Shown: in pieces, positions 21,027 through 57,845 of the stretch
Numbering within the stretch: the stretch's first letter is position 1
How the letters are laid out: each line of letters starts with the position of its first letter
Assembly: GCA_050290185.1 (NCBI GenBank)
Contig: JBNKHE010000003.1
Span: 32,001-96,000 of the forward strand
DNA length: 64,000 nucleotides
Origin: Pontiella sp.
Lineage (GTDB): Bacteria > Verrucomicrobiota > Kiritimatiellia > Kiritimatiellales > Pontiellaceae
Direction: 5' to 3'
Notes under the pieces: generated by a model
Seen by the model: the letters and a program-made list of their open reading frames with translations, nothing else
The model's database searches: none
What the model was told of the DNA's origin: nothing
Position numbers and translations under genes: made by a program

Positions 21027-21896
21027 ATGATTAGACTCGCCATTCAAGCCGCGCTGGACGCGGGGGAAGCCATTCTTGATATCTATGAACAGGATTTCGA
21101 AGTGGAATTCAAAGCCGATGAATCACCGCTGACGACAGCCGACAAGGCCGCGCACAACATCATCGTTCAGGTGCTGGAAAAGACACCGCATCCGGTGCTC
21201 TCCGAGGAAAGTGCGAAAGTCGCATACGGTGAACGTAAGGATTGGGGAACATACTGGCTGGTTGATCCGCTTGACGGAACCAAGGAGTTCATCAAGAAAA
21301 ACGGCGAATTCACGGTCAATATCGCCTTGATTGAAAATGGGCAACCGGTTGCCGGGGTGGTGTATGTGCCGGTAAGCCACACCCTCTACGTGGGTTCTGC
21401 GCAGAGCGCATGGGGTATGGAGCAGGGTGCCTGGAAGGCGGAGGAATGCGCTGGAAAATCCGTTGAAGAAATTTTGGCATCGGCCGGAAAATGCTCTGTG
21501 TCCGGTGCGCCCGGCACACCGCTTAAGATTGTGGCGTCGAAATCGCACTGCAACGATGAAACCCGGCAGTTTATTGCCGACTTGGAAGCCATGCATGGGA
21601 AGGCGGAACTGGTTTCAAAGGGCAGCTCCTTGAAGCTGTGCATGGTCGCCGAGGGCGTGGCCGACATCTATCCACGCATCGCGCCAACCATGGAGTGGGA
21701 TACCGCTGCGGCCCATGCGGTTGTGGTTGCGGCAGGAGGGGCGGTTTATCAATACGATAAAAACCTTGCGGTTTCGGCCTATAATGGTTGTGGCGAAAAT
21801 GACGATCCCGCCACGCGCCAGGCGCCAAGCCCATTGAGCTACAACAAGGAAAACCTACTAAACCCTTACTTTGTGGTAAGTGGATTGCATGAATAA
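21027..21896 (+). CDS. cysQ: 3'(2'),5'-bisphosphate nucleotidase
   Basis: KADESPLT.AD, WLVDPLDGTKEFI, GSSLKLC, EWDTAA. Confidence 0.95.
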   Translation: MIRLAIQAALDAGEAILDIYEQDFEVEFKADESPLTTADKAAHNIIVQVLEKTPHPVLSEESAKVAYGERKDWGTYWLVDPLDGTKEFIKKNGEFTVNIALIENGQPVAGVVYVPVSHTLYVGSAQSAWGMEQGAWKAEECAGKSVEEILASAGKCSVSGAPGTPLKIVASKSHCNDETRQFIADLEAMHGKAELVSKGSSLKLCMVAEGVADIYPRIAPTMEWDTAAAHAVVVAAGGAVYQYDKNLAVSAYNGCGENDDPATRQAPSPLSYNKENLLNPYFVVSGLHE

Positions 21897-21980
21897 ATGG
21901 TGTATATATTATAGACAATATAGCTGAGACGTTATAGGAATACTAACCTTTATCGAAATACGACGAATTCGGAGGGAAAT

Positions 21981-22883
21981 ATGAATAGTTACAATTTATC
22001 ACATTTGAAGCAGTTGGAGGCGGAAAGCATCCACATTATCCGGGAGGTGGCGGCCGAATTCGATAATCCGGTCATGCTCTATTCCATTGGCAAAGACTCT
22101 TCGGTAATGCTGCATCTGGCCCATAAGGCTTTTGCGCCCGGTAAGATTCCGTTTCCGCTGATGCACGTCGATACCCAGTGGAAGTTTCAGGAAATGTACA
22201 AGTTCCGTACGTTGATGGCTGAAAAGTACGAGGTGGATATCAAGGTCTGGATCAACCCGGAGGGCAAGGATCAGGTCGGTCCGTTTTCCCATGGATCTGA
22301 GAAGCACACCCAGATCATGAAGACCGATGCACTCAAGCAGGCGTTGGATCACTATAAGTTCGATGCCGCCTTCGGTGGTGCTCGCCGCGATGAGGAAAAG
22401 AGTCGCGCCAAGGAGCGCGTCTACAGCTTCCGCAACGAATATCATCAGTGGGATCCGAAAAACCAGCGCCCCGAGCTTTGGAACCTCTACAACGCCAAAA
22501 TAAACAAGGGCGAATCCATCCGCGTCTTTCCGCTCTCGAACTGGACCGAGCTCGACATCTGGCTCTATCTGCTGCGCGAAGATATTCCGATCGTTCCGCT
22601 GTACTATGCAGCCGAACGCCCGGTGGTGGAGCGCGATGGCGTGTTGATCATGCTCGACGACGACCGCATGCAGCTCAAGGAGGGGGAAACTCCCATGCAG
22701 AAAAAGGTGCGCTTCCGCACCTTGGGATGCTATCCGCTGACCGGCGCCGTCGAATCCAATGCCGAAACCGTCGAGGAAATCGTGCAGGAAATGTTGCTTA
22801 CCACCACCTCTGAACGCCAGGGCCGCGTGATCGATGGCGACAACTCCTCGATGGAAGATAAGAAGAAGGATGGCTACTTTTAG
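21981..22883 (+). CDS. cysD: Sulfate adenylyltransferase subunit 2
   Basis: [29 protein letters not shown]. Confidence 0.98.
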
Positions 22884-22904
22884 CCGCCGGCTAAAAAGTA
22901 GCCG

Positions 22905-22940
22905 CGTTGAAGCGTTTAAACCGTTAAAGGTTGAAGTCGT
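22905..22940. repeat. Left repeat arm of four-helix-bundle gene 1 (CGTTRAA-type units, ~9 bp period)
   Basis: CGTTGAAG CGTTTAAAC CGTTAAAG GTTGAAGT CGT. Confidence 0.75.
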
Positions 22941-22949
22941 GGGTTTGTC

Positions 22950-23375
22950 ATGAAAGTGGAGCGGTTTGAGGAATTGGATGCATGGAAGGTAGCGCGTGAA
23001 TTGTCCAACTTGGTTTATGCGCTTGGTGGGGACTCCGGAATTTCAAGAGACTATGGGTTCAAGGACCAGATTCAACGGGCAGCGGTTTCTGTAATGAACA
23101 ATATTTCCGAGGGATTTGAGCGCGGGAGTAACAAAGATTATGCAAAGTTTTTATTTATTGCCCGAGGTTCTGTCGGAGAGGTTCGAAGCATGCTTTACCT
23201 TGCTCTGGACCAGAAATATATAACCCATGAGCAATTCAATGAGGCTTATAATCTGTGTGTTCGGGAGTCGCAGCTTTGCTGGGGCTTGATCAAGCACCTG
23301 CAGAAAACGAGTAATTGGAAGACGGGGGCGCAAGTAGTACTCATGATGCTGGTTCCTCTCCTCATGCGGGTTTAA
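22950..23375 (+). CDS. Four helix bundle protein 1 (23S rRNA IVP family)
   Basis: FEELDAWK, KDQIQRAAVSVMNNISEGFER, FLFIARGSVGEVRSML. Confidence 0.92.
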   Translation: MKVERFEELDAWKVARELSNLVYALGGDSGISRDYGFKDQIQRAAVSVMNNISEGFERGSNKDYAKFLFIARGSVGEVRSMLYLALDQKYITHEQFNEAYNLCVRESQLCWGLIKHLQKTSNWKTGAQVVLMMLVPLLMRV

Positions 23376-23456
23376 CGCATTCAACGATTTCAACGACTTT
23401 AACGAGCAACGCGATTTAACGGTTTTAACGAGCAAAGCGATTTAACGATTTAAACG
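23371..23456. repeat. Right repeat arm of four-helix-bundle gene 1 (TTYAACG units), inverted relative to the left arm
   Basis: TTTAACGCA TTCAACGAT TTCAACGAC TTTAACGAG ... TTTAACGGT TTTAACGAG ... TTTAACGAT TTAAACG. Confidence 0.9.
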
Positions 23457-25652: not shown

Positions 25653-26849
25653 ATGAAAAAGATCATCGTAACAGGCGGGGCCGGTTTTATCGGGACGGCG
25701 ATATGCCTTCATTTGGTGCGTACCCTTGAATATCAGGTACTGAATGTTGACAAGCTGACCTATGCCGGCGTGCCGGAGTCTTTGAAGGAAATCGAAGACA
25801 ACCCGCTTTATCGCTTTGAAAAGGCAGATGTGTGCGACAAAGCGACGATCGGTGAGCTGTTTTCCGATTTTAAGCCGGATGCTGTGATGCACCTTGCTGC
25901 GGAGTCGCACGTTGACCGGTCGATCGACGGCCCCGCCGCTTTCATCGAAACCAATATCGTCGGCACCTACACCCTGCTGGAATGTGCGCGACAGTATTGG
26001 AACAGCCTGCCGGGAAAAGTAGCAGACTCCAAACTCCAAACCCCAAACCGCGAAGACTTCCGCTTCCTCCACATCTCGACGGATGAGGTTTATGGTTCGC
26101 TCGGCGCCGAAGGATTATTCAAGGAAACTACGGCTTACGCTCCGCGTTCCCCTTATTCGGCGAGCAAGGCTGCGAGTGATCATCTGGTGATGGCATGGTA
26201 CCACACCTACGGTTTACCTGTAATTATCACGAACTGCTCGAATAACTATGGTCCGCGCCAGTTTCCGGAAAAACTGATTCCTCTCGTCATTCTGAATGCG
26301 CTGGACGGGAAGCCGCTGCCTGTTTACGGCAAGGGCGATAACATCCGCGACTGGCTCTATGTCGAAGATCACGCCCGTGCTCTGGTTGAGGTGATGGAAA
26401 AGGGGCGGCCGGGTGAGACCTACAACATCGGCGGCCGCAATGAACGCACCAATCTCGAAATCGTTGAAACCATCTGCGATGTATTGGACGAGCTCCGGCC
26501 GTTAACGCCCGGGAATGATGAGTGTGCGTTGTCAAATGATGGGAGAATACCAAATCAACCATCAACCAACAACCATCAACCAAAGAAACAGATCAAATCC
26601 TATAAGGATTTGATCTGTTTCGTCGCCGACCGCCCGGGACACGACAAGCGTTACGCCATCGACGCCACGAAAATTGAAACGGAACTGGGCTGGAAGGCTC
26701 ATGAAACATTTGACGCAGGTATACGCCGGACCATCGAGTGGTACCTGGAAAACGAATCATGGTGGAAGCCCATACGGGAAGGCCGGTCTGCCGGCGAACG
26801 GCTGGGATATGGAAAATGCCGCGGCGCATCATGCGGTGATGGAGCTTGA
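25653..26849 (+). CDS. rfbB: dTDP-glucose 4,6-dehydratase
   Basis: [47 protein letters not shown]. Confidence 0.96.
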
Positions 26850-26876: not shown

Positions 26877-27929
26877 ATGAAAAAAGCATTGATTACAGGC
26901 ATTACGGGACAGGACGGTTCCTATTTGACGGAATTGTTGTTGGAGAAGGGCTACGAAGTGCACGGCATTATCCGGCGTGCGAGTTCGTTCAACACGGATC
27001 GCATCGATCACCTCTACAAGGACCGGCACGAGAGCGGCGTCAAGATGTTCCTGCACTATGGAGACCTGACCGATTCGAGCAATCTGAATCGCCTGGTGGA
27101 AAAGATCCAGCCAGCGGAAATCTACAACCTGGCCGCGCAGTCGCATGTGCAGGTTTCTTTCGAGGTGCCGGAATACACCGCCGAAGCCGATGCCATCGGC
27201 GTGTTGCGTCTGCTCGATGCCATTCGGGAAACCGGCATTGACAGCCGCTTCTATCAGGCCTCCACCTCCGAACTGTACGGCAAGGTGATGGAAGTTCCGC
27301 AAACCGAAACCACGCCGTTCTATCCGCGCTCGCCCTATGCCGTCGCCAAGCAATACGGTTTCTGGATCGTCAAAAACTACCGCGAGTCCTACGGCCTTCA
27401 TGCCAGCAACGGCATTCTCTTCAACCACGAATCCCCGCGCCGCGGCGAAACCTTTGTAACCCGCAAGATTACCATGGCCGTCGCCCGTATTTCGCGCGGC
27501 CTGCAGCAATGTCTCTACATGGGTAACATCAACGCCCTGCGCGACTGGGGTTTCGCCCCGGACTATGTCGAAATGATGTGGATGATGCTTCAGCAGGACA
27601 CGCCCGACGACTATGTGGTCGCCACGAACGAAATGCATACCGTCCGCGAGTTCATCGAAAAATCCTTCGGACACGTCGGGATCGAAATCGCGTGGGAAGG
27701 AGAGGGCGTTGATGAGGTCGGAAAAAACAAGGCCACCGGCGATATTGTCGTTCGCATGGATGAACGCTACTACCGCCCCTGCGAAGTCGAACAGCTCCTC
27801 GGCAACCCCGCCAAAGCCAAGCGCCAACTCGGCTGGGAGCCCAAGGTCAAGTTCGAGCAGCTCGTCCAGATCATGACCGACGGCGATCTGCGCCTGCTGG
27901 ATGGCGAATCCTACGAGGTAGGATTCTAG
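26877..27929 (+). CDS. gmd: GDP-mannose 4,6-dehydratase
   Basis: [37 protein letters not shown]. Confidence 0.98.
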
Positions 27930-27967
27930 TTGCTCGTTGTTTTGTTGATAGTTGATAGGGGGTTGCT
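27927..27967. repeat. Left arm of four-helix-bundle gene 2 (NNGTTGN heptamers)
   Basis: TAGTTGC TCGTTGT T TTGTTGA TAGTTGA ... GGTTGC. Confidence 0.75.
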
Positions 27968-27969
27968 CC

Positions 27970-28350
27970 ATGAAAACCTTTGAAGAACTGGAGTGCTACA
28001 AGCAGGCAAGGCAACTCCGCAAGGATGTGTCTCGATTCTGCAAAACCCTTCCTCGCGCAGAGGAGTACCGCTTGAAGGACCAGATTGTCCGGTCATCCCG
28101 TTCAGTAAGCGCGAACATTGCAGAAGGTTATGGTCGCCATCACCATCAAGAAAACATTCAGTTCTGCAGAACAGCACGTGGTTCGCTGACTGAAACACTG
28201 GATCATCTGAATGCTGCGTTGGATGAGGATTATTTATCTCAGGATGAATACACGGAAATGAGGGGACTACTGGAGAATGTTTGGAAAGTTCTCAACGGCT
28301 ACATTGCCTATCTTAAACGTTGCGCTTCCGAAGGTGTGCCGAACGCATAA
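27970..28350 (+). CDS. Four helix bundle protein 2
   Basis: MKTFEELECYK, EEYRLKDQIVRSSRSVSANIAEGYGR, ARGSLTETLDHL. Confidence 0.92.
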   Translation: MKTFEELECYKQARQLRKDVSRFCKTLPRAEEYRLKDQIVRSSRSVSANIAEGYGRHHHQENIQFCRTARGSLTETLDHLNAALDEDYLSQDEYTEMRGLLENVWKVLNGYIAYLKRCASEGVPNA

Positions 28351-28352
28351 TC

Positions 28353-28431
28353 CCAACAACCAGCAACTTTCACCCTGACAACAAGGAGCTTTCAAGTGGA
28401 TTCAGCAACCAGCAATCAACAACCAACAACT
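28353..28431. repeat. Right arm of four-helix-bundle gene 2 (CARCAAC heptamers), running into fcl
   Basis: CAACAAC CAGCAAC ... CAGCAAC CAGCAAT CAACAAC CAACAAC. Confidence 0.85.
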
Positions 28432-29613
28432 CCAGGCGCTCCGCGCCTGCCGCGCAATGCGCGGATCTACATCGCTGGTCACCGGGGCTTGGTCGGGTCC
28501 GGCATCTGGCGCGCGCTCGAGCGGCATGGCTACACCAACCTGATCGGCCGGTCGCGTGACGAACTGGATCTGACCAACCAGCAGGCGGTTGATGATTTTT
28601 TCGCGGCCGAAAAGCCGGAATATGTCGTCCTCGTTGCAGCCAAGGTGGGGGGTATTGTGGCCAACAGCACCTACCGCGCGCAGTTTCTCTATGAAAACCT
28701 GATGATCGAGGCCAATGTGATCCACGCGGCCTACAAACACGGCGTAAAGAAACTGCTGTTCCTCGGCTCCAGTTGCATCTATCCCAAGCTGGCGCCGCAG
28801 CCGCTGAAGGAGGAGCACCTGCTTACCGGGCCGTTGGAGCCGACCAACGAGCCGTACGCCATCGCCAAGATTGCCGGCATCCGGCTCTGCGATGCCTACA
28901 ACCGCCAGTACGGTACCAACTTCATCTCCGCCATGCCCACCAACATGTACGGCCCCGGCGACAACTACCACCCCCGAAACTCCCACGTCCTGCCCGCCTT
29001 CATCCGCCGGATGCATCTGGCCAAGGCACTTGAACAAGCAGACTTCGCCGAGCTCGCCCGCATCTACAAGCGCGAGTTGTTGAATGGCAGTTGTCCGTTG
29101 TCGGGGGAGGAAGGATCGTCAATCCAGCAACCCGGCAATCAACAACTTATCGATTGGCTAATCCAATCGGGCGTGACCCAAACAATCATCAACCAGCACT
29201 TGTCCGCCGGAGCCTTGGCGAAGGAGGAACCATCAACGAATCTCACCTGCTGGGGCAGCGGTTCACCGCTTCGGGAATTCCTCTACAGCGACGACCTCGC
29301 CGAAGCCTGCGTCTTTTTGCTCGAAAGCGTGGACTATTCCGATATGGCCTTCGAGGATGAATCCGGCACGGTACAGGCGCACGTCAATGTGGGTTCCGGC
29401 AGGGAAATCACCATCAAGGAATTGGCTGAAACCGTTCAGGAGGTCGTTGGTTACGAGGGCGAAATCGAATGGGACGCCTCCAAGCCTGATGGCACGCCCC
29501 GCAAGCTGATGGACTCCTCCCGCCTGATGGCGATGGGCTGGAAGCCGCAGGTCGATATGCGCGAAGGGATTGCCCGTGCCTACCAGGATTTCCTCGCCCG
29601 CTACACGACATAA
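28396..29613 (+). CDS. fcl: GDP-L-fucose synthase with repeat-derived insertions
   Basis: [51 protein letters not shown] before GTG. Confidence 0.95.
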
Positions 29614-29640
29614 CGCCTCCATTATTGGAAATATGCAAAG

Positions 29641-29678
29641 GCTTCCCGATTAATCTCGGGAAGCTTTTTTTTTTTTTT
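29641..29678 (+). terminator. Intrinsic terminator after fcl
   Basis: GCTTCCCGA-loop-TCGGGAAGC followed by T14. Confidence 0.9.
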
Positions 29679-30087: not shown

Positions 30088-30978
30088 ATGATGAAAAAGG
30101 TGCGACATGTAGTGGGTTGTATGTTTGCCGCGGCAGGTCTGGCGGGCAATGTGGAGGGAGTGGTTGTGGCCGGTTGGGATGTGGCAGGTGTTGATGTAGC
30201 GGCGGGGATAGGCATTGAGACCAATGGGGCCCCGTACACCTTCAGCGCTACGACATCCGGCGTTTCCCATGTAGACGCCGCGCTCGCTCTGGGCCCCGGA
30301 GTGACTCCAAGCACGACTGTCGGGCAATACGGATTCAAGATTCCCGGAGCCGGGGAGACCAACTCCTTGGACGGAGCCCTGGCAGCAGAACACTATCTCG
30401 AATTTTCCATCACCGTTGACCGGGGTTATCAACTCAACCTGGAGTCGGTCGAGATGGTGGGGCAGGGAACCGCTGGCGGTTGCTCGAACATCGTCCTCAT
30501 GACCAGTCTCGATGGATTTTCAGCCGGCGAGGAAATTGCATCTGCATACCCGGCCAACGATACGGGCGGATTCGATACCGACGAAAGCGGTTTTGGAGGA
30601 CCCATTGACCTTTCGGCGTCAACGTATCAAAATCTGAGCGGCAGCATAACGTTCCGTATCTACGGCTGGAACAGCACCTCCGGCAGCAGTCCGACTTATA
30701 TTCGCAATCTGACCGGTGATGACCTGATGGTATATGGAAACGTTGTCGCCGTATCGGGAACAGGCATACCCGTGCTTTCGGTGGAACATACGAATGGGAT
30801 GGCTTCGCTTATGGTCGAATTCGATGGAGCATCAACCACCAACTATGTGTTGCAGCGTATTGGGAGTCTGGCCGATTCCAATGGCTGGGCCGCTATATCG
30901 TCGCCGTTTTCATCCAGTACAAACTGGACCGTTGAAATCACCAATGCCGCCGCGTTTTACCGCGTGGTGCCGGAGTAG
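30088..30978 (+). CDS. Secreted protein, paralog of the neighbouring PEP-CTERM protein, ending in the ..FYR.. module
   Basis: Signal peptide; shares AGWDV.GVDV, HY.EF, GG.DTD.SG.G.PIDLS, TFRIYGWNS, IRNL.G.DL with 30988-31722. Confidence 0.85.
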   Translation: MMKKVRHVVGCMFAAAGLAGNVEGVVVAGWDVAGVDVAAGIGIETNGAPYTFSATTSGVSHVDAALALGPGVTPSTTVGQYGFKIPGAGETNSLDGALAAEHYLEFSITVDRGYQLNLESVEMVGQGTAGGCSNIVLMTSLDGFSAGEEIASAYPANDTGGFDTDESGFGGPIDLSASTYQNLSGSITFRIYGWNSTSGSSPTYIRNLTGDDLMVYGNVVAVSGTGIPVLSVEHTNGMASLMVEFDGASTTNYVLQRIGSLADSNGWAAISSPFSSSTNWTVEITNAAAFYRVVPE

Positions 30979-30987
30979 GGGGTAGGA

Positions 30988-47947: not shown

Positions 47948-49051
47948 ATGCACTTTACCATAATCACCCCATCCTTCAACCAGCTCGGCTATCTCAAACG
48001 GTGTGTGGCTTCAGTCGCTGATCAAGTGACTGAAAGCATGGAACATGGAGCGGGGCGCATAGAGGTGTGCCACCATGTTCAGGACGGTGGTTCGACGGAT
48101 GGTGCCCGCGAATGGCTGGAGTGTTATGCGAACGAAGTCCGCGAGCAAAATACAGAGGACACAGGACAGAGGACGGAGGACTGCTCCCCTAATGCCGAAT
48201 GTCTAGCGCCTGGTGCCTACACTTTCACGTATGCAAGTGCACCGGATAACGGGATGTATGATGCGATCAACAAAGGTGTGGCCTTTGCGTTAAATCGGTC
48301 TACGACCTCGTTGAATTCGTTAAAGCAGGCTTCGCCTTCGTTAAATCCGTGCCCGAACGATTTCAACGTCTTGAACCTTCAACATTCAACGAAACCTCGC
48401 GACAGCGTGATCGCCTGGCTGAACTGCGACGAACAGTATCTGCCAGGAACCCTGCATAAGGTGGCGGTTTTTTTTGAGCAGCATCCGGAGGTGGATATTG
48501 TGTTCGGTGGCATGCTGATGGTGGATGAGGCTGGAAAGCTGCTGGCTTGCCGCAAGGCCATGCCGATGCGGCGGTTGTTCCTTGAGGCGTCTTATTTATA
48601 TAACTATTCCTGTGCGATGTTTTTTCGTCGATCGGCGTGGGAGAAGTTGGGCGGATTCGATTCAGCCTATCGCAATGCCGGGGATGAAGAGCTGGTGCGA
48701 CGAGCGATGAAGCTGGGGATGAAGACTGCTGTAGTGGATGGTTATCTTTCGGTCTTTACCTATGCAGGGCACAACCTAAGTTCGGAGGGGACGTCCGCCG
48801 TTCAGGAGCATGAGCGACTGAAACAATCAGAATCCCGGGCAAGCCGGTGGCTCCGTTTACCGATCAATCTGGCCCGGCTGGCGGAAAAGTGGATGCGCGG
48901 AGGACTACATGAGCGCGGGGCTTTAGTCTTTGAAATCTACACGGACCCATTGGAAGCGCGCTCCCTTTTTGAAGAGGATAACCCAAGTTGCCACTGGCCT
49001 GGTGAGGTGAAGCCGTATCTGCTCAATCATAGATTGAGCGATAGGCGTTAG
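47948..49051 (+). CDS. Glycosyltransferase family 2 (paralog of 42297) with repeat-derived insertions
   Basis: IITPSFNQ, DGGSTDG, GMYDAINKG, WLNCDEQYLPG. Confidence 0.88.
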   Translation: MHFTIITPSFNQLGYLKRCVASVADQVTESMEHGAGRIEVCHHVQDGGSTDGAREWLECYANEVREQNTEDTGQRTEDCSPNAECLAPGAYTFTYASAPDNGMYDAINKGVAFALNRSTTSLNSLKQASPSLNPCPNDFNVLNLQHSTKPRDSVIAWLNCDEQYLPGTLHKVAVFFEQHPEVDIVFGGMLMVDEAGKLLACRKAMPMRRLFLEASYLYNYSCAMFFRRSAWEKLGGFDSAYRNAGDEELVRRAMKLGMKTAVVDGYLSVFTYAGHNLSSEGTSAVQEHERLKQSESRASRWLRLPINLARLAEKWMRGGLHERGALVFEIYTDPLEARSLFEEDNPSCHWPGEVKPYLLNHRLSDRR

Positions 49052-49067
49052 GTATAGGTGTTGGGTC
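49042..49067. repeat. Left arm of four-helix-bundle gene 4 (TRGGYRT heptamers)
   Basis: TAGGCGT TAGGTA TAGGTGT TGGGTC. Confidence 0.7.
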
Positions 49068-49128
49068 GCGGATGACAGATGGAAAACGTTGAGTCTTTAG
49101 AGTGATATTATCTTGAGCGGGATTTGTG

Positions 49129-49500
49129 ATGGGCGAGCAAGGTTTTAGGCAACTGCGTGTTTGGCAGGAGGCAAAGGCATTGGCTGTCGACGTATACTTG
49201 TTAATCCGAAAATCACTTGCCCTGGACAAGGATTGGGGCCTGAAGGATCAGATGCAGCGGTCTGCCGTATCTATTCCTTCCAATATCGCCGAGGGTGATG
49301 CCCGAAAATCCAACAAGGATTCTATTCGCTTCTTTCACATTGCTTTGGGATCTGCAGCAGAGCTAGCTACTCAGTTGGAGATAGCACTTGAACTTGGGTT
49401 CATCGATGAACTGCCATGCCATGGAATCATTAATCGACTAGATCAGTTGTCGAAAAGCCTTGGCGCTCTCGTCAAGGGGCGGCAACAGCCCAATACCTAA
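49129..49500 (+). CDS. Four helix bundle protein 4
   Basis: FRQLRVWQ, DWGLKDQMQRSAVSIPSNIAEG, IALGSAAELATQLEIA. Confidence 0.93.
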   Translation: MGEQGFRQLRVWQEAKALAVDVYLLIRKSLALDKDWGLKDQMQRSAVSIPSNIAEGDARKSNKDSIRFFHIALGSAAELATQLEIALELGFIDELPCHGIINRLDQLSKSLGALVKGRQQPNT

Positions 49501-49598
49501 AACCTACATATAATGTCAAAATCCAAACACCGAGCACCTCTTAATACCCAATACACTATGCCTGTATCCCAATACCCAATACCCAATACCCAATGTCC
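49489..49598. repeat. Right arm of four-helix-bundle gene 4 (CCCAATA heptamers), running into the next gene
   Basis: CCCAATA x3 perfect at 49568-49588 plus degenerate copies. Confidence 0.88.
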
Positions 49599-50826
49599 GA
49601 CGCGACACCGTCGCGTGGCTATCGATCTGGTTCCGATTCGTGTCGGCGAGGGCGGGACGGGGAGTGGGATCTGGACCTACGCCCGCGAGCTGCTCCTTGC
49701 GATGGATCGGTCGGAGGTCCATGAACTGGAAATCCTTGCGCTGGTCAATGAAGGCCAAGTGCCGTTTTTGTCGGATTTGAAACATATTCGGTTGGTGCGC
49801 TTTCGCGGGGGAGGAAAGAGCATCATCCGGCGATTGTTTTGGGTCCATCTGCAACTGCCGCTCCATTGCTTGTTCAGACGGGTGGATGTGCTCCATAAAC
49901 TGGCGACCGATACGCCGCTGTTTTGTCACTCCAAACGGGTGACCACCATCCACGATTTTTATTACGAGTTCTTGATGGAGCAGCGATCCAGGGAAAGCAT
50001 CCGGCTCTACGAACGTGTGGAGAGCGCTTATTTTTCGATGGTGACAAAAGCCTGCTTCAAGAAATCAAACGCCATTATTACCGTATCGAACGCCACCCGG
50101 GAAGAAGCGGTTCGACGCTATCCCGGTTCCAAAGATCGCATTGCCGTGATTCATCATGGGGCGCCGTACTTGCAGCCGATAGCCGATAGCCGACAGCCAA
50201 GAGCCAAAGAGTCATCCGCACTTCCGTCATCAACCATCAACCATCAATCATCAACGGATATTAAACGTGACGCGTTCAATATCCTCTGCGTCGCCAAGTT
50301 CATGGAACACAAGGGACAGCACCTTCTGCTCAAGGCGTTTGAGCGGTTGCTTGCAGAACACCCTGAGTGTGCGGACACGACCAGACTGACGCTCCGCGGT
50401 TTTCATAATGATTCTGACTATTACGAGGCGATTTGCCGAAAGATCAACGATAGCCGATATGCTTCGAATATTGATCTTGTGGCCTTCGATCCCAAGGACA
50501 CCATCGGGGACATATACCGTAATGCGGATCTGGTGGTTCTGCTTTCGGGTTATGAGGGATTTGGTCTGCCGGTTTTGGAGGCCCAGTCGATGGGCGTGCC
50601 CGTGTTGTGTTCCGACCTGCCGGTCTTGCGGGAGGTCGGTGGAGATGGAGCTGTATATGTAGCGAGGGACGATATAGAACGCGTGGCTAGAGCTATGCAT
50701 CGGTTTATTTTCGATGTCGATTATTATGATGCCCTGCGGAATGAAGCCTCTGGAAATATCCAGCGGTTTTCATGGAACTTAGCCGCCGAGAAGACCTTGA
50801 ATGCCTATGCAATCTGTTTCGCTTAG
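49513..50826 (+). CDS. Glycosyltransferase family 4; N-terminus is repeat-derived, so the exact start is uncertain
   Basis: VTTIHD, TVSNAT, HKGQ, YEGFGLPVLEA. Confidence 0.9.
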   Translation: MSKSKHRAPLNTQYTMPVSQYPIPNTQCPTRHRRVAIDLVPIRVGEGGTGSGIWTYARELLLAMDRSEVHELEILALVNEGQVPFLSDLKHIRLVRFRGGGKSIIRRLFWVHLQLPLHCLFRRVDVLHKLATDTPLFCHSKRVTTIHDFYYEFLMEQRSRESIRLYERVESAYFSMVTKACFKKSNAIITVSNATREEAVRRYPGSKDRIAVIHHGAPYLQPIADSRQPRAKESSALPSSTINHQSSTDIKRDAFNILCVAKFMEHKGQHLLLKAFERLLAEHPECADTTRLTLRGFHNDSDYYEAICRKINDSRYASNIDLVAFDPKDTIGDIYRNADLVVLLSGYEGFGLPVLEAQSMGVPVLCSDLPVLREVGGDGAVYVARDDIERVARAMHRFIFDVDYYDALRNEASGNIQRFSWNLAAEKTLNAYAICFA

Positions 50827-53161
50827 TTGGTTTATGTTCTGCCTGATCATTGCAGGGCTCCTTGTGGAACCTTCCGCAGCGGCCCGCACGGTCGGATTGG
50901 CTTCGATGCAGAATTTTGAGGATCTTCCAGTGATAGAAGAGGATGTCGATGTCTTTCAGGTTTCAAGTCATGACCGAACCGGCGCAAACGATGACGGGTT
51001 CAACGGGACTTATTCGAGCCTTTACCGGGATGAAGAGGGCGATTATGTGCTGTTCGACGAAATAGGCGCCGGATGCATTACGCGCATGTGGATGACTTTT
51101 TCGACGGCCAACCTCAATCCGACCAACCACATCCGATTCTATTTCGATGAGGATGCCGAACCGCGCATCGATGTCTCCCTTCAGGATTTCTTTCATGGGA
51201 CCACTGCTCCTTTTCTGAGTCCGCTGGTGGGGGATCGGTTGGTATCGAGTGGCGGTTATTATTGCTATCTGCCTTTCCCGTTCGCCCGTCGCTGCCGGAT
51301 CGAGATGGCGCACAAACCGTATTTCTACAACATCACCTGTCAGCGTTTTGCATCAACCAACGGCGTGGCTACCTGGACAGGGCTGGAGGAGAGTGCGGGT
51401 GTTCGCTCAATGTGGGAACACGTTGGCAGCGATCCAAAGCCGACGAACGGGAATGTTCAGGTCGATGGTATGTTATCGATTCCTGCCGGAACCACCGGCA
51501 CGGTGTTTTCCGTGCTGGGTGCCGGAGCGGTGGCTGGGCTGTTGCTGGATATCGAGCCGCACTCGGCAGAGGTGCTCACCAATGTCTGGATCGACATGGT
51601 GTGGGATGGCGAAGCAACGCCGCAGGTTTCGGCCCCGCTGGGCGAGTTTTTCGGATGTCGTTTCGGCGAGACCAATCTAACGGCACTTCCGGTTGGCATG
51701 AACACGAATACACCGTATTACTGCTGGTTTCCCATGCCGTTCTGGAGCTCCGCTCATATCGAGGTCGTGAATCATTCTTCGGTCGATATCACTAATCTGA
51801 CGTTTGAGGTCCAGTACCATAATCGGGCGTATGATGCATTGCGCACCGGTTGGTTCCATGCGGTGGCCCGCTCGAAGAATATCGTGCAGAGCGACGGAAA
51901 TGATTATGTTCTATTGGAGACCAATGGATGGGGCAAGGTGGTGGGTGTGGTGCTTTCAGTACGAAACAGGAGCACGGATCCATTGGGCTATTTGGAAGGC
52001 GATGAGCGTATCTATATTGATGGAAGCTCAACACCCCAGCTCTATGGAACGGGAACGGAGGATTTTTTCAACGGGGGATGGTACTTTAACCAGGGGCCAT
52101 TCTCTCTTCCCGTCCACGGGAACCCGATGCGTAAGCACGAGTGGAGACCGGATTGGAATGTGCCCCCCTACATCTCCAACAACTTTACCGCGGCGTATCG
52201 GTTCTTTCTTGCAGACTGCCTTTCTTTTCGCTCATCCATCCGGTTGGGGATGGAGCACGGCTATAATAATTCCCAGAAAGGAGAGTATTCCAGCGTGGTG
52301 TACTACTACCTGCTTCCATCACGCACAGGAATGGTTTTACGTACAGCACTGGATGTGGGGAATATATTCTCCGAGTCTGATGCAGACTATGTAAGCTCGG
52401 AAAGTATTCTGGTAACCAACAGCTGGCGATACGAAGGCGATGCTGACAACGATGTGGTTGTGGATGACGGTCGGATCATCTCGGATTCTTCAAGCTTTGC
52501 GGTGTCCCTATCGAGCACGAACATGGGACTGTTGATTCGCCGGCGGGCGGATGCGGTGCCTGGTCGTCAGCATGTGAAAGTATATGTGGATGAGGCGTTG
52601 GTCAGTGATTGGTATACTGCAGATTGTAATTTCACTAATTTAAACAGACGATGGTTTGATGCGGAATTGCAGATTCCGGCAGCGTACACCGCCGGAAAAA
52701 CATCGGTAACGGTCCGGTTGGAGAAGGATCTTTCATCTGCGGGACTTTGGAGTGAGTATCGATATTGGGTCTATAGTCTGGAGCCTTTGCTGCCCACAGG
52801 AGATCTGGATGCCGACGGCTTGCCGGATGAGTGGGAGATTTCATATTTCGACAATATTCTGGAGGCGGTTCCGGGGGAAGATGGCGACGGTGACGCAATG
52901 GGGAATTTGGCGGAGTATATAGCGGGAACCGATCCCTTGGATTCCGTATCGAACTTTCGCCTTCGAACCGATGCCGAAGCACTCTCTTTTCTTGCGCAAA
53001 CCGGACGGTCCTATACCCTATGGTATTCGTCTGATTTGCTTGCGGGTGAGTGGAGCGCGGCGGCGACCAACTTGCAAGGGAATGGAGTAATTGTTTTCTG
53101 GCCGTATCCCAAAAACGGAACAAACGGATTTTATCGAGCGGACGTACAGTTACAATGGTAG
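50807..53161 (+). CDS. Secreted DUF2961 (GH172-like) protein with C-terminal module
   Basis: SSHDRTGANDDG, GCITRMW, FPMPF, LEGDE, GTGTEDFFNGGWYF; DLDADGLPDEWE. Confidence 0.8.
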   Translation: MQSVSLSWFMFCLIIAGLLVEPSAAARTVGLASMQNFEDLPVIEEDVDVFQVSSHDRTGANDDGFNGTYSSLYRDEEGDYVLFDEIGAGCITRMWMTFSTANLNPTNHIRFYFDEDAEPRIDVSLQDFFHGTTAPFLSPLVGDRLVSSGGYYCYLPFPFARRCRIEMAHKPYFYNITCQRFASTNGVATWTGLEESAGVRSMWEHVGSDPKPTNGNVQVDGMLSIPAGTTGTVFSVLGAGAVAGLLLDIEPHSAEVLTNVWIDMVWDGEATPQVSAPLGEFFGCRFGETNLTALPVGMNTNTPYYCWFPMPFWSSAHIEVVNHSSVDITNLTFEVQYHNRAYDALRTGWFHAVARSKNIVQSDGNDYVLLETNGWGKVVGVVLSVRNRSTDPLGYLEGDERIYIDGSSTPQLYGTGTEDFFNGGWYFNQGPFSLPVHGNPMRKHEWRPDWNVPPYISNNFTAAYRFFLADCLSFRSSIRLGMEHGYNNSQKGEYSSVVYYYLLPSRTGMVLRTALDVGNIFSESDADYVSSESILVTNSWRYEGDADNDVVVDDGRIISDSSSFAVSLSSTNMGLLIRRRADAVPGRQHVKVYVDEALVSDWYTADCNFTNLNRRWFDAELQIPAAYTAGKTSVTVRLEKDLSSAGLWSEYRYWVYSLEPLLPTGDLDADGLPDEWEISYFDNILEAVPGEDGDGDAMGNLAEYIAGTDPLDSVSNFRLRTDAEALSFLAQTGRSYTLWYSSDLLAGEWSAAATNLQGNGVIVFWPYPKNGTNGFYRADVQLQW

Positions 53162-53231
53162 CGAGCTTGAATATTCGATTGGGTGTACGTTGATAATAGA
53201 TGGCTTGGCACCGTATTTTCTGGAGTGGTCA

Positions 53232-55706
53232 ATGGGTACTTTTTTAATCAAATGGGGAAAATGGTTTACACCGGTCCTGGGATGCATTGCGGTCTTCCTG
53301 CTGCTGCACTACCTGCAAAAGATGGGGGGCTACCAATTGCCCGCGTGGATAGTGGGTACAATGGGCGCGGTGAGTGGAATTACCCTGCTCGGGTATCTAC
53401 TGCAACTACATGTATTGAACCGGATCGGGGGGGTGTTTCTTCTGGTAGTGGCCGTGGTATGTTTGGTGGGTATGTTGCTGCCGGCCGAAACCATAGGCGA
53501 ATATCCGCACAAAGCATCCGCAGTGGTTGCCCATGATTTCGACGCAGCCTGGAAAACGGTCTATGGCCATGACCTATTCAAGGAGTTCAGCCTGCACCGG
53601 AACCTGATGCAGTATGCCAAGAGCTTGTCCAGTTTCGATATTCACCGGGCGGGTCAGATGGGGCTGTTCGGTATTTTTGGCCTTGCGATGGGAATCTGCT
53701 TTCTCTTTCCCATAGACCCCTCCTCCCTCCGATGGCGCTATTCCAGTCGGGTTCTACTGCTGTGTGTTGCGGGAGCGCTATGGTCCTTGCTGCTGGAACT
53801 GTTGCAGACGCTATCACCAACGCGTGAAGTCTCTTTTGGGGGTTTTCTTGAGAGCACAATCGGGGTCTTCGCGGGGACGCTGCTGTTTGCTCTATGCAAC
53901 ACGGTCTATGTCTCTCGAAAAAGGATGCTTGAGGATCGGCGCTTCAACGTGCTCGGCGTAGGTATTGATGCCGTGGATATGGAGGACTGTCTTCAATTAT
54001 TTCAGGAGATCATCGGCCAACAGGCACTAGGCAATGGGCATAAGGCATTAGGAGAGAGGGCTAACAGCCAAGAGCCAAGAGCTGACAGCTCATACTACTA
54101 TCCCTCACAGGAGGAAACCGGGGGGTTGGATCTCGGAAGCGCGGCGCAGACTCCTAAATCGGAAATCGGAAATCGGAAATCGGAAATTATTCTATCTTCC
54201 GGTCTCAAAACCCGACTGCCGGCCATGACCACTGCGATGGGCGTGGCGGGGATCGTGGAGTCGCGCCGCAACCAGAAGCTCCAGCGCATCCTGAACGAAT
54301 CGGTGTTGAACACGCCTGACGGCATGCCGTTGGTCTGGTTGGGCAAATTGTTCGGCTATCGAAATGTCGAGCGCGTATATGGTCCCGATCTGCTGCGAGA
54401 TGCCTGTGCCTATGGGGTAGATAAAGGATGGCGGCACTATTTCTGGGGGGCTGCGCCGGGGATTGTCGAGAAACTAAAAGTAGTGCTGGAAGAGAAACAT
54501 CCCCTGATCCAGATTTCAGGGATCTGCTGTCCACCGTTTCGTCCGTTGACTCAGGAGGAAGAGGATGCGCTGGTGGAGGAAGTGAATTCAGCCGATACCG
54601 ATATTTTCTGGATCGGGATCAGCACGCCGAAGCAACTTTATTTCATGGATCATATCCGCGATCGGCTGAACTGCAAAGTCATCTGTCCGGTGGGATATGC
54701 CTTCGATGTGAATGCCGGGGTGGAGAAGGATGCGCCGGACTGGATCAAGTATGCCGGGCTTCAATGGCTGCACCGCGGGATCAAGCAACCGCGCCTCTGG
54801 AAACGCTATCTGCCGGACAATCCCGCGTTTGTACTCAAGGTCTTTTCCCAACTGCTGCACCTGAAACGGTTTACCATGTTCGTGCATGAACGCCCGATTG
54901 CCCCCGTAACCGATGCCGAAGGGTTCCCTCGTTTTCCGGCCGGTGCAGTGGCGCTGTCGGCCATGAGCATGCGTGGAGCGCGTGATCGCGTCGCACACTG
55001 GATCGAATCGGGGAAAAAACACTACGTCAATATCTGTACGGCGGATACCGTTGTGCAGTGCTACGACCGGCCCGACCTGGCAAAGATTGTGATGAATGCC
55101 GGGATGGCTACAACCGACGGTATGCCACTGGTTTGGCTTGCCCATCATTTTGGTTACACGGATGCGACGCGGGTCTATGGGCCGGATCTCATGCTTGAGC
55201 TTTGTGCCTTGAGCGAAATGAAGGGCTATGCCCATTATTTCTACGGGGCGACTGATGAGGTGCTGGAGCAATTACGGATAAACCTGCTGGAAAAGTATCC
55301 GCAACTGAAGATTGCGGGCATGTATGCTCCGCCTTTCCGTCCGCTCACCGATGCCGAGAAGGAGGACGTGGCGGAACGGATCAATGCCGCGAAGCCGGAC
55401 ATCGTCTGGTGCGGGCTGGGAACGCCCAAGCAGGACTACTGGGTGGCGGAATTCCGCCCGCGCCTGAATGCAGCCGCCATTCTGGCCGTGGGTGCTGCCT
55501 TCAACTTTCACGCCGGGCATGTGACACAGGCCCCGCGCTGGATGATGAAGTCCGGTTTGGAATGGCTTTTCCGCCTATGCGTTGAACCGCGTCGTCTCTG
55601 GCGCCGGTACATCATTGGCAATCCTCGTTTCGTTTGCCAAACCCTAAAGCAGTGGATCCGTGCGCGCCGAATTCGGAAACGGCTTGCCGCGATCGAAACT
55701 CCATAG
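53232..55706 (+). CDS. VanZ-like membrane domain fused to two WecB/TagA/CpsF glycosyltransferase domains
   Basis: DGMPLVW, RVYGPDL, G(I/L)(S/G)TPKQ and PRLW.RY-type motifs each occur twice; N-terminal LELLQTLSPTR; GGAG RBS. Confidence 0.85.
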   Translation: MGTFLIKWGKWFTPVLGCIAVFLLLHYLQKMGGYQLPAWIVGTMGAVSGITLLGYLLQLHVLNRIGGVFLLVVAVVCLVGMLLPAETIGEYPHKASAVVAHDFDAAWKTVYGHDLFKEFSLHRNLMQYAKSLSSFDIHRAGQMGLFGIFGLAMGICFLFPIDPSSLRWRYSSRVLLLCVAGALWSLLLELLQTLSPTREVSFGGFLESTIGVFAGTLLFALCNTVYVSRKRMLEDRRFNVLGVGIDAVDMEDCLQLFQEIIGQQALGNGHKALGERANSQEPRADSSYYYPSQEETGGLDLGSAAQTPKSEIGNRKSEIILSSGLKTRLPAMTTAMGVAGIVESRRNQKLQRILNESVLNTPDGMPLVWLGKLFGYRNVERVYGPDLLRDACAYGVDKGWRHYFWGAAPGIVEKLKVVLEEKHPLIQISGICCPPFRPLTQEEEDALVEEVNSADTDIFWIGISTPKQLYFMDHIRDRLNCKVICPVGYAFDVNAGVEKDAPDWIKYAGLQWLHRGIKQPRLWKRYLPDNPAFVLKVFSQLLHLKRFTMFVHERPIAPVTDAEGFPRFPAGAVALSAMSMRGARDRVAHWIESGKKHYVNICTADTVVQCYDRPDLAKIVMNAGMATTDGMPLVWLAHHFGYTDATRVYGPDLMLELCALSEMKGYAHYFYGATDEVLEQLRINLLEKYPQLKIAGMYAPPFRPLTDAEKEDVAERINAAKPDIVWCGLGTPKQDYWVAEFRPRLNAAAILAVGAAFNFHAGHVTQAPRWMMKSGLEWLFRLCVEPRRLWRRYIIGNPRFVCQTLKQWIRARRIRKRLAAIETP

Positions 55707-55747
55707 CCCGCAGATGGTCGCAGAAGATCGCGGATACACTTTACACG

Positions 55748-55787
55748 GTCTCCGATTCTGAGGTAAGAGCCATCAGGCTCAGACTCG
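55748..55787. repeat. Palindromic REP-like unit, inverted copy of 31779-31818
   Basis: 37/40 identical to the reverse complement of 31779-31818 by manual comparison. Confidence 0.85.
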
Positions 55788-56048
55788 TACGGGAATCAAC
55801 GAAGCTGCCGGAGGGAAACCTTCCTTGATTCATCAACCTCTGATTGCTCGGCTAGCTCGGCGTGACCAAACCGATGGAATGGACATTATCACACAGAGAT
55901 AGCGGAGATAACGGAGGTTTGTTACTGCCCGTCTCTACTTGCTCCGTTCGCTCTGCTTGTGTATAGGCTGTTGCCGACTCGCCCTGAAATGCAGTATTTC
56001 AGGGCTTTTTTGTTTACATCTCCTCAGCGGACCAACTAGCGTTTAGAT

Positions 56049-57845
56049 GTGCCAGTTCGCCGTTCCATATTAGTCCCGGTCTTGACCGCCATGCTGTTGT
56101 TTGTCGTGTATTCGTTCACGGCTCCGCAGAACCATAGCGAAGCTGAGGATGTTTACGATTTTGCGCTGAAGGTGGAGCAGGGGCATTTTGCAGATCAGGC
56201 CGGCGTGAACCGCGTGCTGGCGCTCCCTGCATTGGGGGTGGCGTACAGGGCCGCACAGTTGTTGGGATATGATGGCCGTGCCTTTCCATTCATGATCATC
56301 ATCAACCGTTTCCTCGCCGTAGTCTGTGTGTTTCTGTTCTACCACCTGCTCACTCTGGCGTACCGCAGGCATCCTGCCTTCCCTGGATCCGCTTCCCTTT
56401 CGCCTAATACCTTCCCAAACCATCAACCATCAACCAGCAACCAACAACTAGTAACCGCTCTTCTGTTGGCCTTCTCCTACGGCTTCTGGCGCTACGCCAA
56501 CGAAGCGGAAACCTACATCCTGGCAAGTGTTCTAGTGCTTGGAGCCTGGTGTCTGGCCATTGGCCAGCAATCAGCAATCAGCGACCGGCAGTCAGCAAAA
56601 GACAACGGTTCTCCGACTTCCTCCCTCCCTCCGGAACGTAGGCTCCTCCGGGCCGGAGGCCGTCCTTGGTTTACCCTCCTCTGTCCTCTGGTTTCCGCTT
56701 TCGGCATTCTGGTGCATCTACTGAACCTGGTGCCGCTGCTGTTGATCATACCCCTGTACTATCTGTTTTCCGGGAAATGGAAGAACGCAGTGTTTCATGG
56801 CCTGATGACAGGGGGGCTGGTCGGATTGGGCTACGGACTCTGCTTCCACATGCTGGATTGGGGCAATCTGGGCGCACATGATCAACCGTTGGAAGCCGGC
56901 TTCAGCCTTTCGAATGTGCTGCGCGGGGGTATCGCCTCCGGCCAATGCCTGGTATCGGGCAACTTCCTGTTCGGGTTCGAGTCGTTTCGTGATGCCCTGA
57001 TCAACCTGTTCCCTTCGCGCATGCTGGGGGAAGAGTTTTACATGGCGTCGCACATGCCTGACTGGATCAAATGGGCGGGGTGCGTGACGATCACAGCGTT
57101 TTCGGTTTGCAGTTTGTGGTTTGCGTTTAAGTGCTGGCAGAGCCAAAAGGCATGTTGGAGCAGTAGCGAAATGCAGTCTTCTGCTAACTTCAAAACGAAA
57201 AATTCAAACATACGGCCATTAACCATTTCATCCGCCATCTGGTTGCTCCTGTATGCTCTAGCCGTGATCCACACGGAGGCGGGTAGCCCGGAATTATGGA
57301 TCATGGCATTGATTCCCTTTTGGCTTATCGTCGCTCCGCTCCAACAAAGAGCATGGGGCATGGGGCATGGAGGAAGCACAATCGCTATGGATAGAACGGG
57401 CAGGATTTGCTCTTGGGGATTGGTCCTTGCACTTTTTTTACATAATCTGGTAGCGGGGTTGCTCCCCGTTATGTCAAACGCGTCCGACTATCATGTGGCC
57501 AAGGGAAAATGGCTGGTGGAGCACTGTGGCCCGCAGGATCTGATATTGACCGACTACGAGCCGGTAATGGTTTTTTACCTGGACTATTATGTAGCCGGCG
57601 ATGTGGTCAGCAGTGGGGCCATGAATGCGCCGGATATCGAGCGAAAGCTTGGAACGCGAACGGGAAACGCGTACGCTTTGGCTTCTTTTTTCCGGCCCAT
57701 GGAATCGATGCGGGTGCGCAACCCGAAGCAATATGCTCGAATGGTGGCGACCGGAGAAGCGCTGCAATCCGGGTTTGTAAAAATTGAAGACGATGAATTT
57801 GGTGGCGTGTGGGAGTTTAAGGAGCAGTTGAATATTGATAAATGA
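56049..57845 (+). CDS. Multi-TM membrane protein, possibly a GT-C type transferase, with repeat-derived insertions
   Basis: SEAED in the first loop; LAFSYGFWRYANEAETY; many TM helices. Confidence 0.6.
   Translation: MPVRRSILVPVLTAMLLFVVYSFTAPQNHSEAEDVYDFALKVEQGHFADQAGVNRVLALPALGVAYRAAQLLGYDGRAFPFMIIINRFLAVVCVFLFYHLLTLAYRRHPAFPGSASLSPNTFPNHQPSTSNQQLVTALLLAFSYGFWRYANEAETYILASVLVLGAWCLAIGQQSAISDRQSAKDNGSPTSSLPPERRLLRAGGRPWFTLLCPLVSAFGILVHLLNLVPLLLIIPLYYLFSGKWKNAVFHGLMTGGLVGLGYGLCFHMLDWGNLGAHDQPLEAGFSLSNVLRGGIASGQCLVSGNFLFGFESFRDALINLFPSRMLGEEFYMASHMPDWIKWAGCVTITAFSVCSLWFAFKCWQSQKACWSSSEMQSSANFKTKNSNIRPLTISSAIWLLLYALAVIHTEAGSPELWIMALIPFWLIVAPLQQRAWGMGHGGSTIAMDRTGRICSWGLVLALFLHNLVAGLLPVMSNASDYHVAKGKWLVEHCGPQDLILTDYEPVMVFYLDYYVAGDVVSSGAMNAPDIERKLGTRTGNAYALASFFRPMESMRVRNPKQYARMVATGEALQSGFVKIEDDEFGGVWEFKEQLNIDK

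Follow-up and report, generated by a model that had tools for sequence, protein, structure and literature searches.

In-frame heptamer repeat arrays in enzyme loops of a Pontiella polysaccharide cluster and their correlation with four-helix-bundle gene cassettes

Rickettsia palindromic elements (RPEs) are small repeated DNAs that lie in frame in unrelated enzymes and are predicted to be compatible with the protein fold (PMC10969869; this and the other papers are cited for selected passages). The intervening sequences (IVS) of Coxiella 23S rRNA carry an open reading frame (ORF) of the S23p/PF05635 family that is flanked by complementary arms and has heptameric repeats beside it (PMC4990558). 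Long simple sequence repeats (SSRs) with heptanucleotide units have also been described, by Mrazek et al. (summarised in PMC4679880) and as the GGGAATC repeats of Xanthomonas and the repeats of Nostoc (PMC4692102); they occur as inverted pairs, and a minority is intragenic. Features of all three come together in a 64,000-nucleotide stretch of the marine bacterium Pontiella sp. ("the window"; assembly GCA_050290185.1, contig JBNKHE010000003.1, positions 32,001 to 96,000), where a polysaccharide and sulfation cluster carries 7-base repeat arrays inside its enzyme genes and PF05635 four-helix-bundle (FHB) genes between them. On balance, the arm-type heptamers in about twenty enzyme loops were probably copied in as patches, from cassette arms and other repeats, and then altered by slippage and overwriting under selection for frame and loop tolerance, a reading that we hold with moderate confidence. 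The link between FHB genes and arrays is correlational, and so is the case for the FHB protein as driver of the copying.

Heptamer arrays inside cluster genes

The co-oriented cluster spans window positions 16.6-60.4 kb and includes genes for a NusG paralogue, glmS, cysQ, cysD, cysNC, rfbB, gmd, fcl, a flippase, a sulfotransferase, GT2 and GT4 glycosyltransferases, an O-antigen ligase, WecB and WbaP. At a threshold of 11, the cluster holds 15 period-7 arrays (34 per 100 kb) and the whole genome 42 (1.2 per 100 kb), while the window has none in its first 16.6 kb, in keeping with an earlier note on this DNA that saw no inserts in 1-13 kb, and none beyond 60.4 kb. The 42 arrays compare with 1-3 at each of periods 5, 8, 10 and 11 genome-wide, and the cluster has none at periods 5, 8, 10, 11 or 13. 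Within ORFs, 14 arrays fall in 36.8 kb of cluster genes and 29 in 3.02 Mb of other genes, a density about 40-fold higher; by gene, 7 of 34 in the cluster carry an array, compared with 28 of 2527 elsewhere (Fisher p=2e-7). In-frame heptamer arrays inside the cluster genes are thus real and far above chance. Contigs from three other DNA runs, two of them possibly the window's own source, span many inserts without gaps, and the inserts are therefore not an assembly artefact.

The earlier note had described about 25 frame-preserving repeat insertions, with units of 7-9 bp, in 10 biosynthetic genes. We split its ranges into 27 sites, and at 21 the self-identity at lag 7 or lag 14 exceeds the 99th percentile of insert-free window genes; the six that fall short are fcl 29160-29238, GT2 42381-42414, GT4 44392-44447, 44715-44748 and 44839-44864, and GT2 48290-48393. 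The unit is essentially 7, the 8-9-base cases belonging to other families (the TTTAACG arms of the FHB gene at 22950 and a GxxExxY-type arm). Arrays are short and degenerate, and the longest intragenic ones have only 4-5 copies. The sites are as follows.

21399-21449, + strand: cysQ site 1, a GCATGGG array; between identical anchors the filled allele measures 30 nt and the empty one 9 nt, a difference of 21 nt
21789-21836, + strand: cysQ site 2, a CGCCA(C/G)G array of 42 nt, where the modal length is 18 nt
26019-26054, + strand: rfbB site 1, a CAAACTC array that exceeds the modal empty allele by 27 nt; its loop connects helix 94-118 to strand 137-143
26508-26600, + strand: rfbB site 2, arms G-rich, then CAACCAT, adding 84 nt in predicted coil
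29029-29240, + strand: extra helical subdomain of fcl, conserved at the protein level, with repeat-filled loops at 29089-29118 and 29185-29229, the second containing a dispersed repeat of the GCCTTGGCGAAG type
42381-42515, + strand: GT2 (gene 42291-43208), a weak site at 42381-42414 and a CAACCAT site at 42486-42515; this gene has no orthologue set, and its site positions correspond to filled loops in the paralogue at 47942
44132-44944, + strand: GT4 (gene 44009-45319), inserts at 44132-44188 (TAGC family), 44393-44449 (8-periodic) and 44696-44748 (GxxExxY-type arms), a weak site at 44846-44860 and a same-length overwrite at 44912-44944
45483-47720, + strand: O-antigen ligase/TPR gene (45291-47753), five filled loops at 45483-45557, 46665-46842, 46950-46995, 47217-47360 and 47574-47720, with a junction hairpin at 46989-47025
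48034-48393, + strand: GT2 (gene 47942-49051), a GCATGG overwrite at 48034-48065 and inserts at 48140-48211 (ACAGAGG) and 48290-48382 (of the TTTAACG family, to which the arms of cassette 1 below also belong)
50172-50256, + strand: GT4 (gene 49513-50826), AGCCGAT and CATCAAC arrays in an inter-domain loop
54021-54187, + strand: WecB/TagA fusion (gene 53091-55706), a 141-nt block of AGCCAAG and AAATCGG arrays that measures 0-12 nt in the shortest alleles
56352-57410, + strand: membrane protein (gene 56049-57845, weak TMEM260-like match), four filled loops at 56352-56456, 56565-56672, 57096-57200 and 57345-57410

Nor are the repeats confined to the cluster, in which the earlier note had seen one transcription unit: ORFs elsewhere in the genome contain arrays of the same heptamer families, at C1:803538, C1:418994, C5:11978, C5:163161, C8:79018, C6:269959 and C10:112787-121363. 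The array-bearing ORFs outside the cluster include large secreted proteins and genes that we take, by likeness, to be hemN-, miaA-, hypF- and bioD-like.

Turnover of repeats and retention of frame among orthologues

Orthologues were sought across the order, in 89 genomes for most genes and in 41 for rfbB; the best loci were aligned, with the window's own gene in each set. The loci kept were 27 of 30 for rfbB (three paralogues were dropped), 30 for fcl (58 genomes matched), 30 of 72 for the ligase, 30 of 46 for cysQ, 17 of 25 for the membrane protein, 16 of 16 for GT2, 24 of 25 for WecB, 13 of 13 for the GT4 at 44009 and 8 of 9 for the GT4 at 49513. These loci are the top-scoring matches, which favours intact genes, and kin among them are not independent. 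Two WecB N-terminal blocks are alignment artefacts; they were kept in the block autocorrelation and excluded from the fold, polarity, inverted 6-mer and junction-hairpin tests.

Length-variable blocks in the alignments coincide with the sites listed above, and at 22 of 25 testable sites the window exceeds the shortest alleles by at least 15 nt; these are length polymorphisms of the presence/absence kind among the relatives. Little or no length is added at GT4 44846-44860, at GT4 44912-44935 (modal length) and at GT2 48034-48065, and at the last two, host sequence has been replaced by repeats. Variable blocks of eight gene families, up to about 270 nt long, have a lag-7 identity of 0.364 and a lag-14 identity of 0.332, compared with 0.254 and 0.253 in the conserved cores; the value at lag 7 for the window inserts is 0.387.

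Different genomes fill the same loop with different repeats. Site 2 of rfbB is filled in 7 of 24 rows and empty in 17, and the largest number of unit families at a single site is 6 in rfbB, 6 in fcl, 7 in the ligase, 7 in GT2 and 9 in WecB. On a quick tree, the approximately unbiased (AU) test rejected the filled rfbB alleles as clades (p 7e-69 and 2e-43). Many of them nonetheless have flanking residues in common, so that both repeated gain and recombinational transfer are possible.

Much of the fcl range 29073-29238 calls for another description. It falls in the extra helical subdomain, of about 50-60 aa, whose protein sequence is conserved in roughly half the fcl genes of this order and also in Bacteroidota, and the repeats are confined to its two loops; for fcl, conservation in distant orthologues counts, in part, against an origin from repeats. 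Loop 2 varies in 21/24-nt length steps. Beyond this lineage, 11 of 46 fcl loci carry a heptamer array, eight in the loop before WG(S/T)G as in the window and three in another loop.

Three side observations concern fcl. In L048, L053 and L058 the last 25-30 codons are repeated in diverged form just past the stop, with a short TGACAAC array between, which looks like the footprint of 3'-end replacement by recombination. A dispersed element encoding "ALAKE" occurs in fcl loop 2 (window 29200-29230), in a Bacteroidales fcl (L317) and, inverted, in ligase site 1. A locus on a contig titled Sedimenticola (L272) has an fcl 71% identical to that of the window, like Pontiellaceae loci, and is either misbinned or transferred.

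The reading frame is kept throughout. Units are mostly not multiples of three, and yet there is no locus among the 195 orthologous ones in which the gene is broken at an insert or an insert contains an in-frame stop. Nine were flagged: five are alignment overruns past the natural start or stop, three are the duplicated fcl C-termini, and in one (ligase L072) there is a second match beyond the main one. Stop triplets number 0, 276 and 536 in the three frames of 9306 codons, a circular result, since rows were chosen as open frames, and one that we do not use as evidence. Eight other cluster genes (gmd, cysD, cysNC, glmS, a transporter, the NusG paralogue, an epimerase and wbaP) have no array in 145 kb from 5-30 genomes each, which extends to orthologues of gmd, cysD, cysNC and glmS (30, 24, 6 and 17 genomes) the absence seen earlier in the window; of these, gmd is located between rfbB and fcl. 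The two rfbB inserts are gaps in the alignment to the E. coli structure 1BXK, and both are placed in coil between core elements by an AlphaFold model from 10 sequences, whose mean pLDDT of 62 makes this weak support.

Filled alleles that are not monophyletic, the absence of broken loci, interleaved genes such as gmd that never carry inserts, and rfbB inserts that lie in coil together argue for a DNA-level process followed by a filter for frame and loop, as the earlier note had proposed. The process is not the simple seeding envisaged there, because different repeat families, matching FHB arms and other dispersed repeats, refill and overwrite the same loops. Purifying selection would discard frameshifts, in-frame stops and inserts in genes that have no tolerant loop; the pattern is observed and selection is its presumed cause. 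The repeats are likely retained only where the protein tolerates them, and the insert peptides are likely translated and probably near-neutral passengers.

Two other accounts of the reading frame deserve mention. The arrays might be adaptive: as contingency switches they would tune the enzymes of the surface polysaccharide or make them phase-variable, which their concentration in a surface-glycan cluster would suggest; a single-unit change of a non-triplet unit would indeed shift the frame. No such shift occurs among the 195 top-match loci, and the contigs of the three DNA runs, in which rare variants are dropped, show no indel at an insert. The small copy numbers and degeneracy of the arrays also tell against switching, as does the occurrence of the same families in the hemN-, miaA- and bioD-like genes named by likeness above, and we consider this account very unlikely. 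Alternatively, the inserts might be cut from the mRNA like intervening sequences or introns and never be translated. Arms of the same type bracket rRNA IVS elements that are cut by RNase III (PMC4990558). Removal would make an open frame and the lack of stops unnecessary, and most inserts have no stable hairpin; RNase III, moreover, is not known to rejoin the ends that it cuts. This last account is the least credible of those considered here.

FHB cassettes and the source of the repeats

Four of the genome's five PF05635 genes above cut-off lie at junctions between cluster genes, each within a cassette.

22905-23456, + strand: FHB cassette 1, PF05635/TIGR02436 gene 22950-23375 at the cysD-cysNC junction, inverted CGTTTAAA/TTTAACG arms at 22905-22928 and 23369-23456
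27928-28429, + strand: FHB cassette 2, gene 27970-28350, inverted GTTGATA/CAACAAC arms, the 3' arm forming the N-terminal extension of fcl
32245-32763, + strand: FHB cassette 3, gene 32304-32669, TAGCCAA/AGCTAAC arrays on both sides, mainly in direct orientation
49042-49594, + strand: FHB cassette 4, gene 49126-49500, inverted TAGGT/ACCTA arms at 49042-49058 and 49490-49506

All four sit between protein-coding genes and not inside an rRNA gene. Their PF05635/TIGR02436 ORF (four genes over cut-off) is absent from the intragenic inserts. The arms are inverted in three of the four, with whole-cassette fold z scores of -0.2 to -1.7, and a CCCAATA array of cassette 4 extends into the N-terminus of the next GT4. 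Directly upstream of cassette 3 is a small ORF (31968-32189) with a weak FitA-like ribbon-helix-helix match.

FHB genes occur in 80 of the 89 genomes. Of 81 distinct FHBs, 58 are flanked by an array; those upstream are G-rich in 24 of 32 cases and those downstream C-rich in 38 of 45. On a FastTree tree of the FHBs, flank similarity is 0.26 among close and 0.06 among distant members, showing that arm families track FHB clades (AKFRFQDL with GCATGG, MYQSYE with GTGTTAG, MKTFEELE with CAACAAC, VSDYKEL with CAAACTT, RINSAK with CTGACCT); this tracking is partly co-inheritance, because many clade members occupy a common site. At the gmd-fcl junction, four FHB or arm types are found in 23 of 30 loci and none in the other seven. 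FHB cassettes are thus gained and lost at the junctions between genes, and every FHB clade goes with a repeat family of its own.

Several lines of evidence connect the intragenic repeats to these arms and to other repeats of the cluster. Of 118 intragenic units, 41 are identical to a unit of an FHB arm, compared with 8.1 for shuffled units. The window families GCATGG, ACAGAGG and CAAACTC go with FHB clades that are absent from this genome, which suggests that they are a record of former cassettes. Of 224 matches of the inserts, 54 are to dispersed repeats inside the cluster, compared with 0-3 of about 145 for control segments, and modules of 27-34 nt are common to loops and spacers kilobases apart; ligase 46665-46842, for example, contains a 34-nt, 94% copy of the intergenic element at 55884. 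The polarity of cassette arms, from G-rich to C-rich, is found in 110 of 150 inserts and 76 of 150 controls, and the two halves of an insert have an inverted 6-mer in common in 42% of cases, compared with 29% when permuted. FHB arms are not the only donors: the genome's GxxExxY-type gene (PF13366) has flanks that both match GT4 44696-44748.

As a separate observation, CACAGAG/CTCTGTG-family intergenic hairpins at 31720-31960, 47895-47934 and 55880-55960 are related to the flanks of this GxxExxY-type gene (C2:323004-323348). Gene and hairpins seem to form a second arm-plus-small-gene system parallel to that of the FHBs.

One junction carries a mechanistic footprint.

26585-26621, + strand: rfbB junction hairpin, perfect 17 bp, the 3' end of the insert being an inverted copy of downstream rfbB codons

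In the window, 17 of 17 positions pair between the insert end and the inverted downstream host codons, and the arm mirrors even the window's unique Cys codon (Thr in 18 of 25 rows). Of 20 positions, the filled alleles pair 18, 18, 15, 12, 9, 7 and 5, with the pairing in L005 one base off register, and the 18 empty ones pair 3-11; the arms fit their own genome best (p=0.012, seven rows, uncorrected). The junction is a genome-specific inverted copy of host codons, the footprint of a template switch. Template switching at quasi-palindromes is described as homogenising their arms and so producing multi-nucleotide codon changes (PMC8604942).

Under patch copying, single arms, left and right arms together (about 15-270 nt) or other small repeats would be copied into nearby coding DNA, through template switching or short-patch ectopic recombination in replication or repair. 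A filled loop could later be overwritten by another family, and arrays would then lengthen or shorten by slippage, often in 21-nt steps, for which there is partial evidence.

The main rival is purely local mutation, in which polymerase slippage biased to 7 bases, together with fold-back copying, acts anywhere, its products survive in loops and spacers, and the FHB genes are incidental. Heptamers are the commonest class of long SSR and a polymerase origin has been proposed for them (Mrazek et al. via PMC4679880), the rfbB fold-back is local, fcl loop 2 varies in 21/24-nt steps, and arrays exist with no FHB nearby. Local mutation would have to produce, on its own, the convergence of units on the FHB-arm repertoire (41 of 118 against 8), modules common to sites kilobases apart, the 40-fold clustering where four-fifths of the genome's FHB genes are, and the left/right arm polarity of the inserts. 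We regard it as possible and rather unlikely.

Whole FHB cassettes, or MITE-like pairs of arms (MITE: miniature inverted-repeat transposable element), might instead enter genes and later lose their core, leaving two-armed remnants in frame. In several inserts (rfbB L004 and L006, fcl L035) the left arm and the right arm do match and belong to one family, and the polarity in 110 of 150 inserts is as this predicts. None of 81 FHB genes tested lies inside a coding sequence (seven flagged cases were taken, by their coordinates, for gene-junction artefacts), many inserts are single-armed or same-length overwrites, and neither ends nor lengths are fixed, which makes this account doubtful, more so than local mutation.

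Patch copying has difficulties of its own. With no FHB gene seen inside a coding sequence, no direct intermediate between cassette and gene was observed. Agreement between the family in a loop and that of the adjacent cassette is weak (p=0.03, uncorrected for kinship), and families are only slightly shared within a genome (0.086 against 0.069), so that a genome-wide signature of one active repeat family is weak. Among the 11 array-bearing fcl loci in other phyla, there is just one with an FHB no more than 3 kb away. Few junctions carry a strong hairpin: it is present in 12 of 486 junction windows, about 10 of them distinct, compared with 1 of 744 controls and, among empty sites, 3 of 263. Inserts mostly fold no better than shuffles, with z below -2 in 17% of 150 inserts against 8% of controls and at 1 of 28 window sites; a strong hairpin for every insert is thereby rejected. 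Filled-minus-empty lengths are not clean multiples of 21 nt (23 of 150; a pairwise tally of 28 of 151 is noisy through forced alignments). Homologous genes in six FHB-less genomes have 0.4 arrays per 10 kb, compared with 5.8, a contrast that is confounded because ligase insert load follows gene clade: the ligase tree has an insert-free clade of 10 rows, eight of them with FHBs. FHB loss as the cause of missing inserts was therefore rejected, the pair G020/G044 being the sole real contrast. Separately, a general excess of intragenic hairpins in the cluster was not upheld, with just two cases.

A more speculative extension, which we put forward as a tentative and rather improbable idea, is that PF05635 FHB proteins are the trans-acting part of unrecognised repeat-writing selfish elements, each clade recognising its own heptamer and promoting its copying nearby. 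Tolerant enzyme loops would then record past cassettes and keep gaining new peptide sequence, and the bacterial excess of heptamers, rRNA intervening sequences and the Avd fold would be tied together.

Cluster setting and comparison with described systems

A sulfated-exopolymer cluster described from Pontiella is similar in kind to that of the window (PMC7356697). At the head of the cluster stands the following gene.

16658-17209, + strand: NusG/RfaH/UpxY-type paralogue, below every equivalog cut-off, the second NusG-family gene of the genome

Within the cluster that it heads, a strong U-rich terminator-like hairpin with a long T run follows fcl (29637-29668); antitermination might allow it to be read through, and the cluster is a putative transcription unit only. 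A promoter scan gave fewer sites than in shuffles. Genes at 33295-43993 have a lower GC content (0.43-0.51) and no strong intragenic heptamer arrays, the weak sites in GT2 42291 excepted, and may be more recent arrivals. Secreted-looking proteins with partial or no Pfam matches are interspersed (30088-31722, 33295-34452 and 50801-53161); 30988-31722 ends, by its motif, in a PEP-CTERM-like tail (NCBIfam gave no match at 1e-8).

Non-triplet repeats would be expected to be purged from genes, yet in nine or ten enzymes of this cluster they fill about twenty loops, with turnover from one species to another. The low-complexity peptides that result are derived from DNA repeats and should not be annotated as functional motifs. 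Two questions can be put to the cluster as a defined case for comparison: what lies behind the bacterial excess of 7-base repeats, and what role the widespread PF05635 proteins have. The rfbB junction supplies a mutational footprint.

The pieces are known in print, as RPEs, heptamer SSRs and IVS. We found no paper tying FHB genes, heptamer arms and in-frame inserts together, in a search that took in few subscription journals. To the known pieces this case adds the density of arrays in one cluster, the turnover of families at loops whose position is fixed, overwrites that leave the length unchanged, a set of matched negative genes and a clade-to-repeat table.

PF05635 resembles Avd, a protein of diversity-generating retroelements (DGRs) (PMC10053308), and the window's Avd-like genes differ from a DGR in having no linked reverse transcriptase. 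In a genome 95.5% complete, reverse transcriptase was found only as fragments on two contigs (502 and 717 nt), with none in the window and none intact, and a DGR link was rejected. MITEs have fixed terminal inverted repeats and constant length, whereas the inserts have variable ends, single arms and same-length overwrites. Phase-variable SSR loci undergo frame-shifting changes of copy number, which are not seen at the window inserts in the 195 top-match loci or the contigs of three DNA runs. The rfbB footprint differs from template-switch mutation as described (PMC8604942) in that one arm is newly inserted beside a heptamer array, where the published cases start from an inverted repeat already present.

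As in the genomes with published heptanucleotide SSRs, period 7 is dominant in this genome. The published repeats are, in the passages cited, of one motif genome-wide and mostly intergenic, with no link drawn there to FHB genes, protein loops or family turnover (PMC4679880, PMC4692102). The multicopy heptanucleotide and octanucleotide elements of Geobacter metallireducens are read as putative regulatory sites, and the cited passages make no comparison with frame, loops or FHBs (PMC2700814).

Like the Coxiella IVS, the window cassettes have a PF05635 ORF between arms with heptamer repeats adjoining; unlike it, they are placed in an operon, between protein genes, and DNA of the arm type is also present within coding sequences, unaccompanied by the ORF (PMC4990558). 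Like RPEs, the inserts lie in frame in unrelated protein-coding genes. RPEs, as reported, form families of about 150 bp with a conserved peptide, whereas the inserts are 7-base arrays of many families, up to nine at a site, with variable ends, concentrated in one cluster and refilling the same loop with different families (PMC10969869); nor do the inserts have the stable palindromic structure of RPEs. The arrays thus work like Rickettsia RPEs without the features that define those elements, and the cassettes share the build of ORF-bearing IVS but stand outside rRNA.

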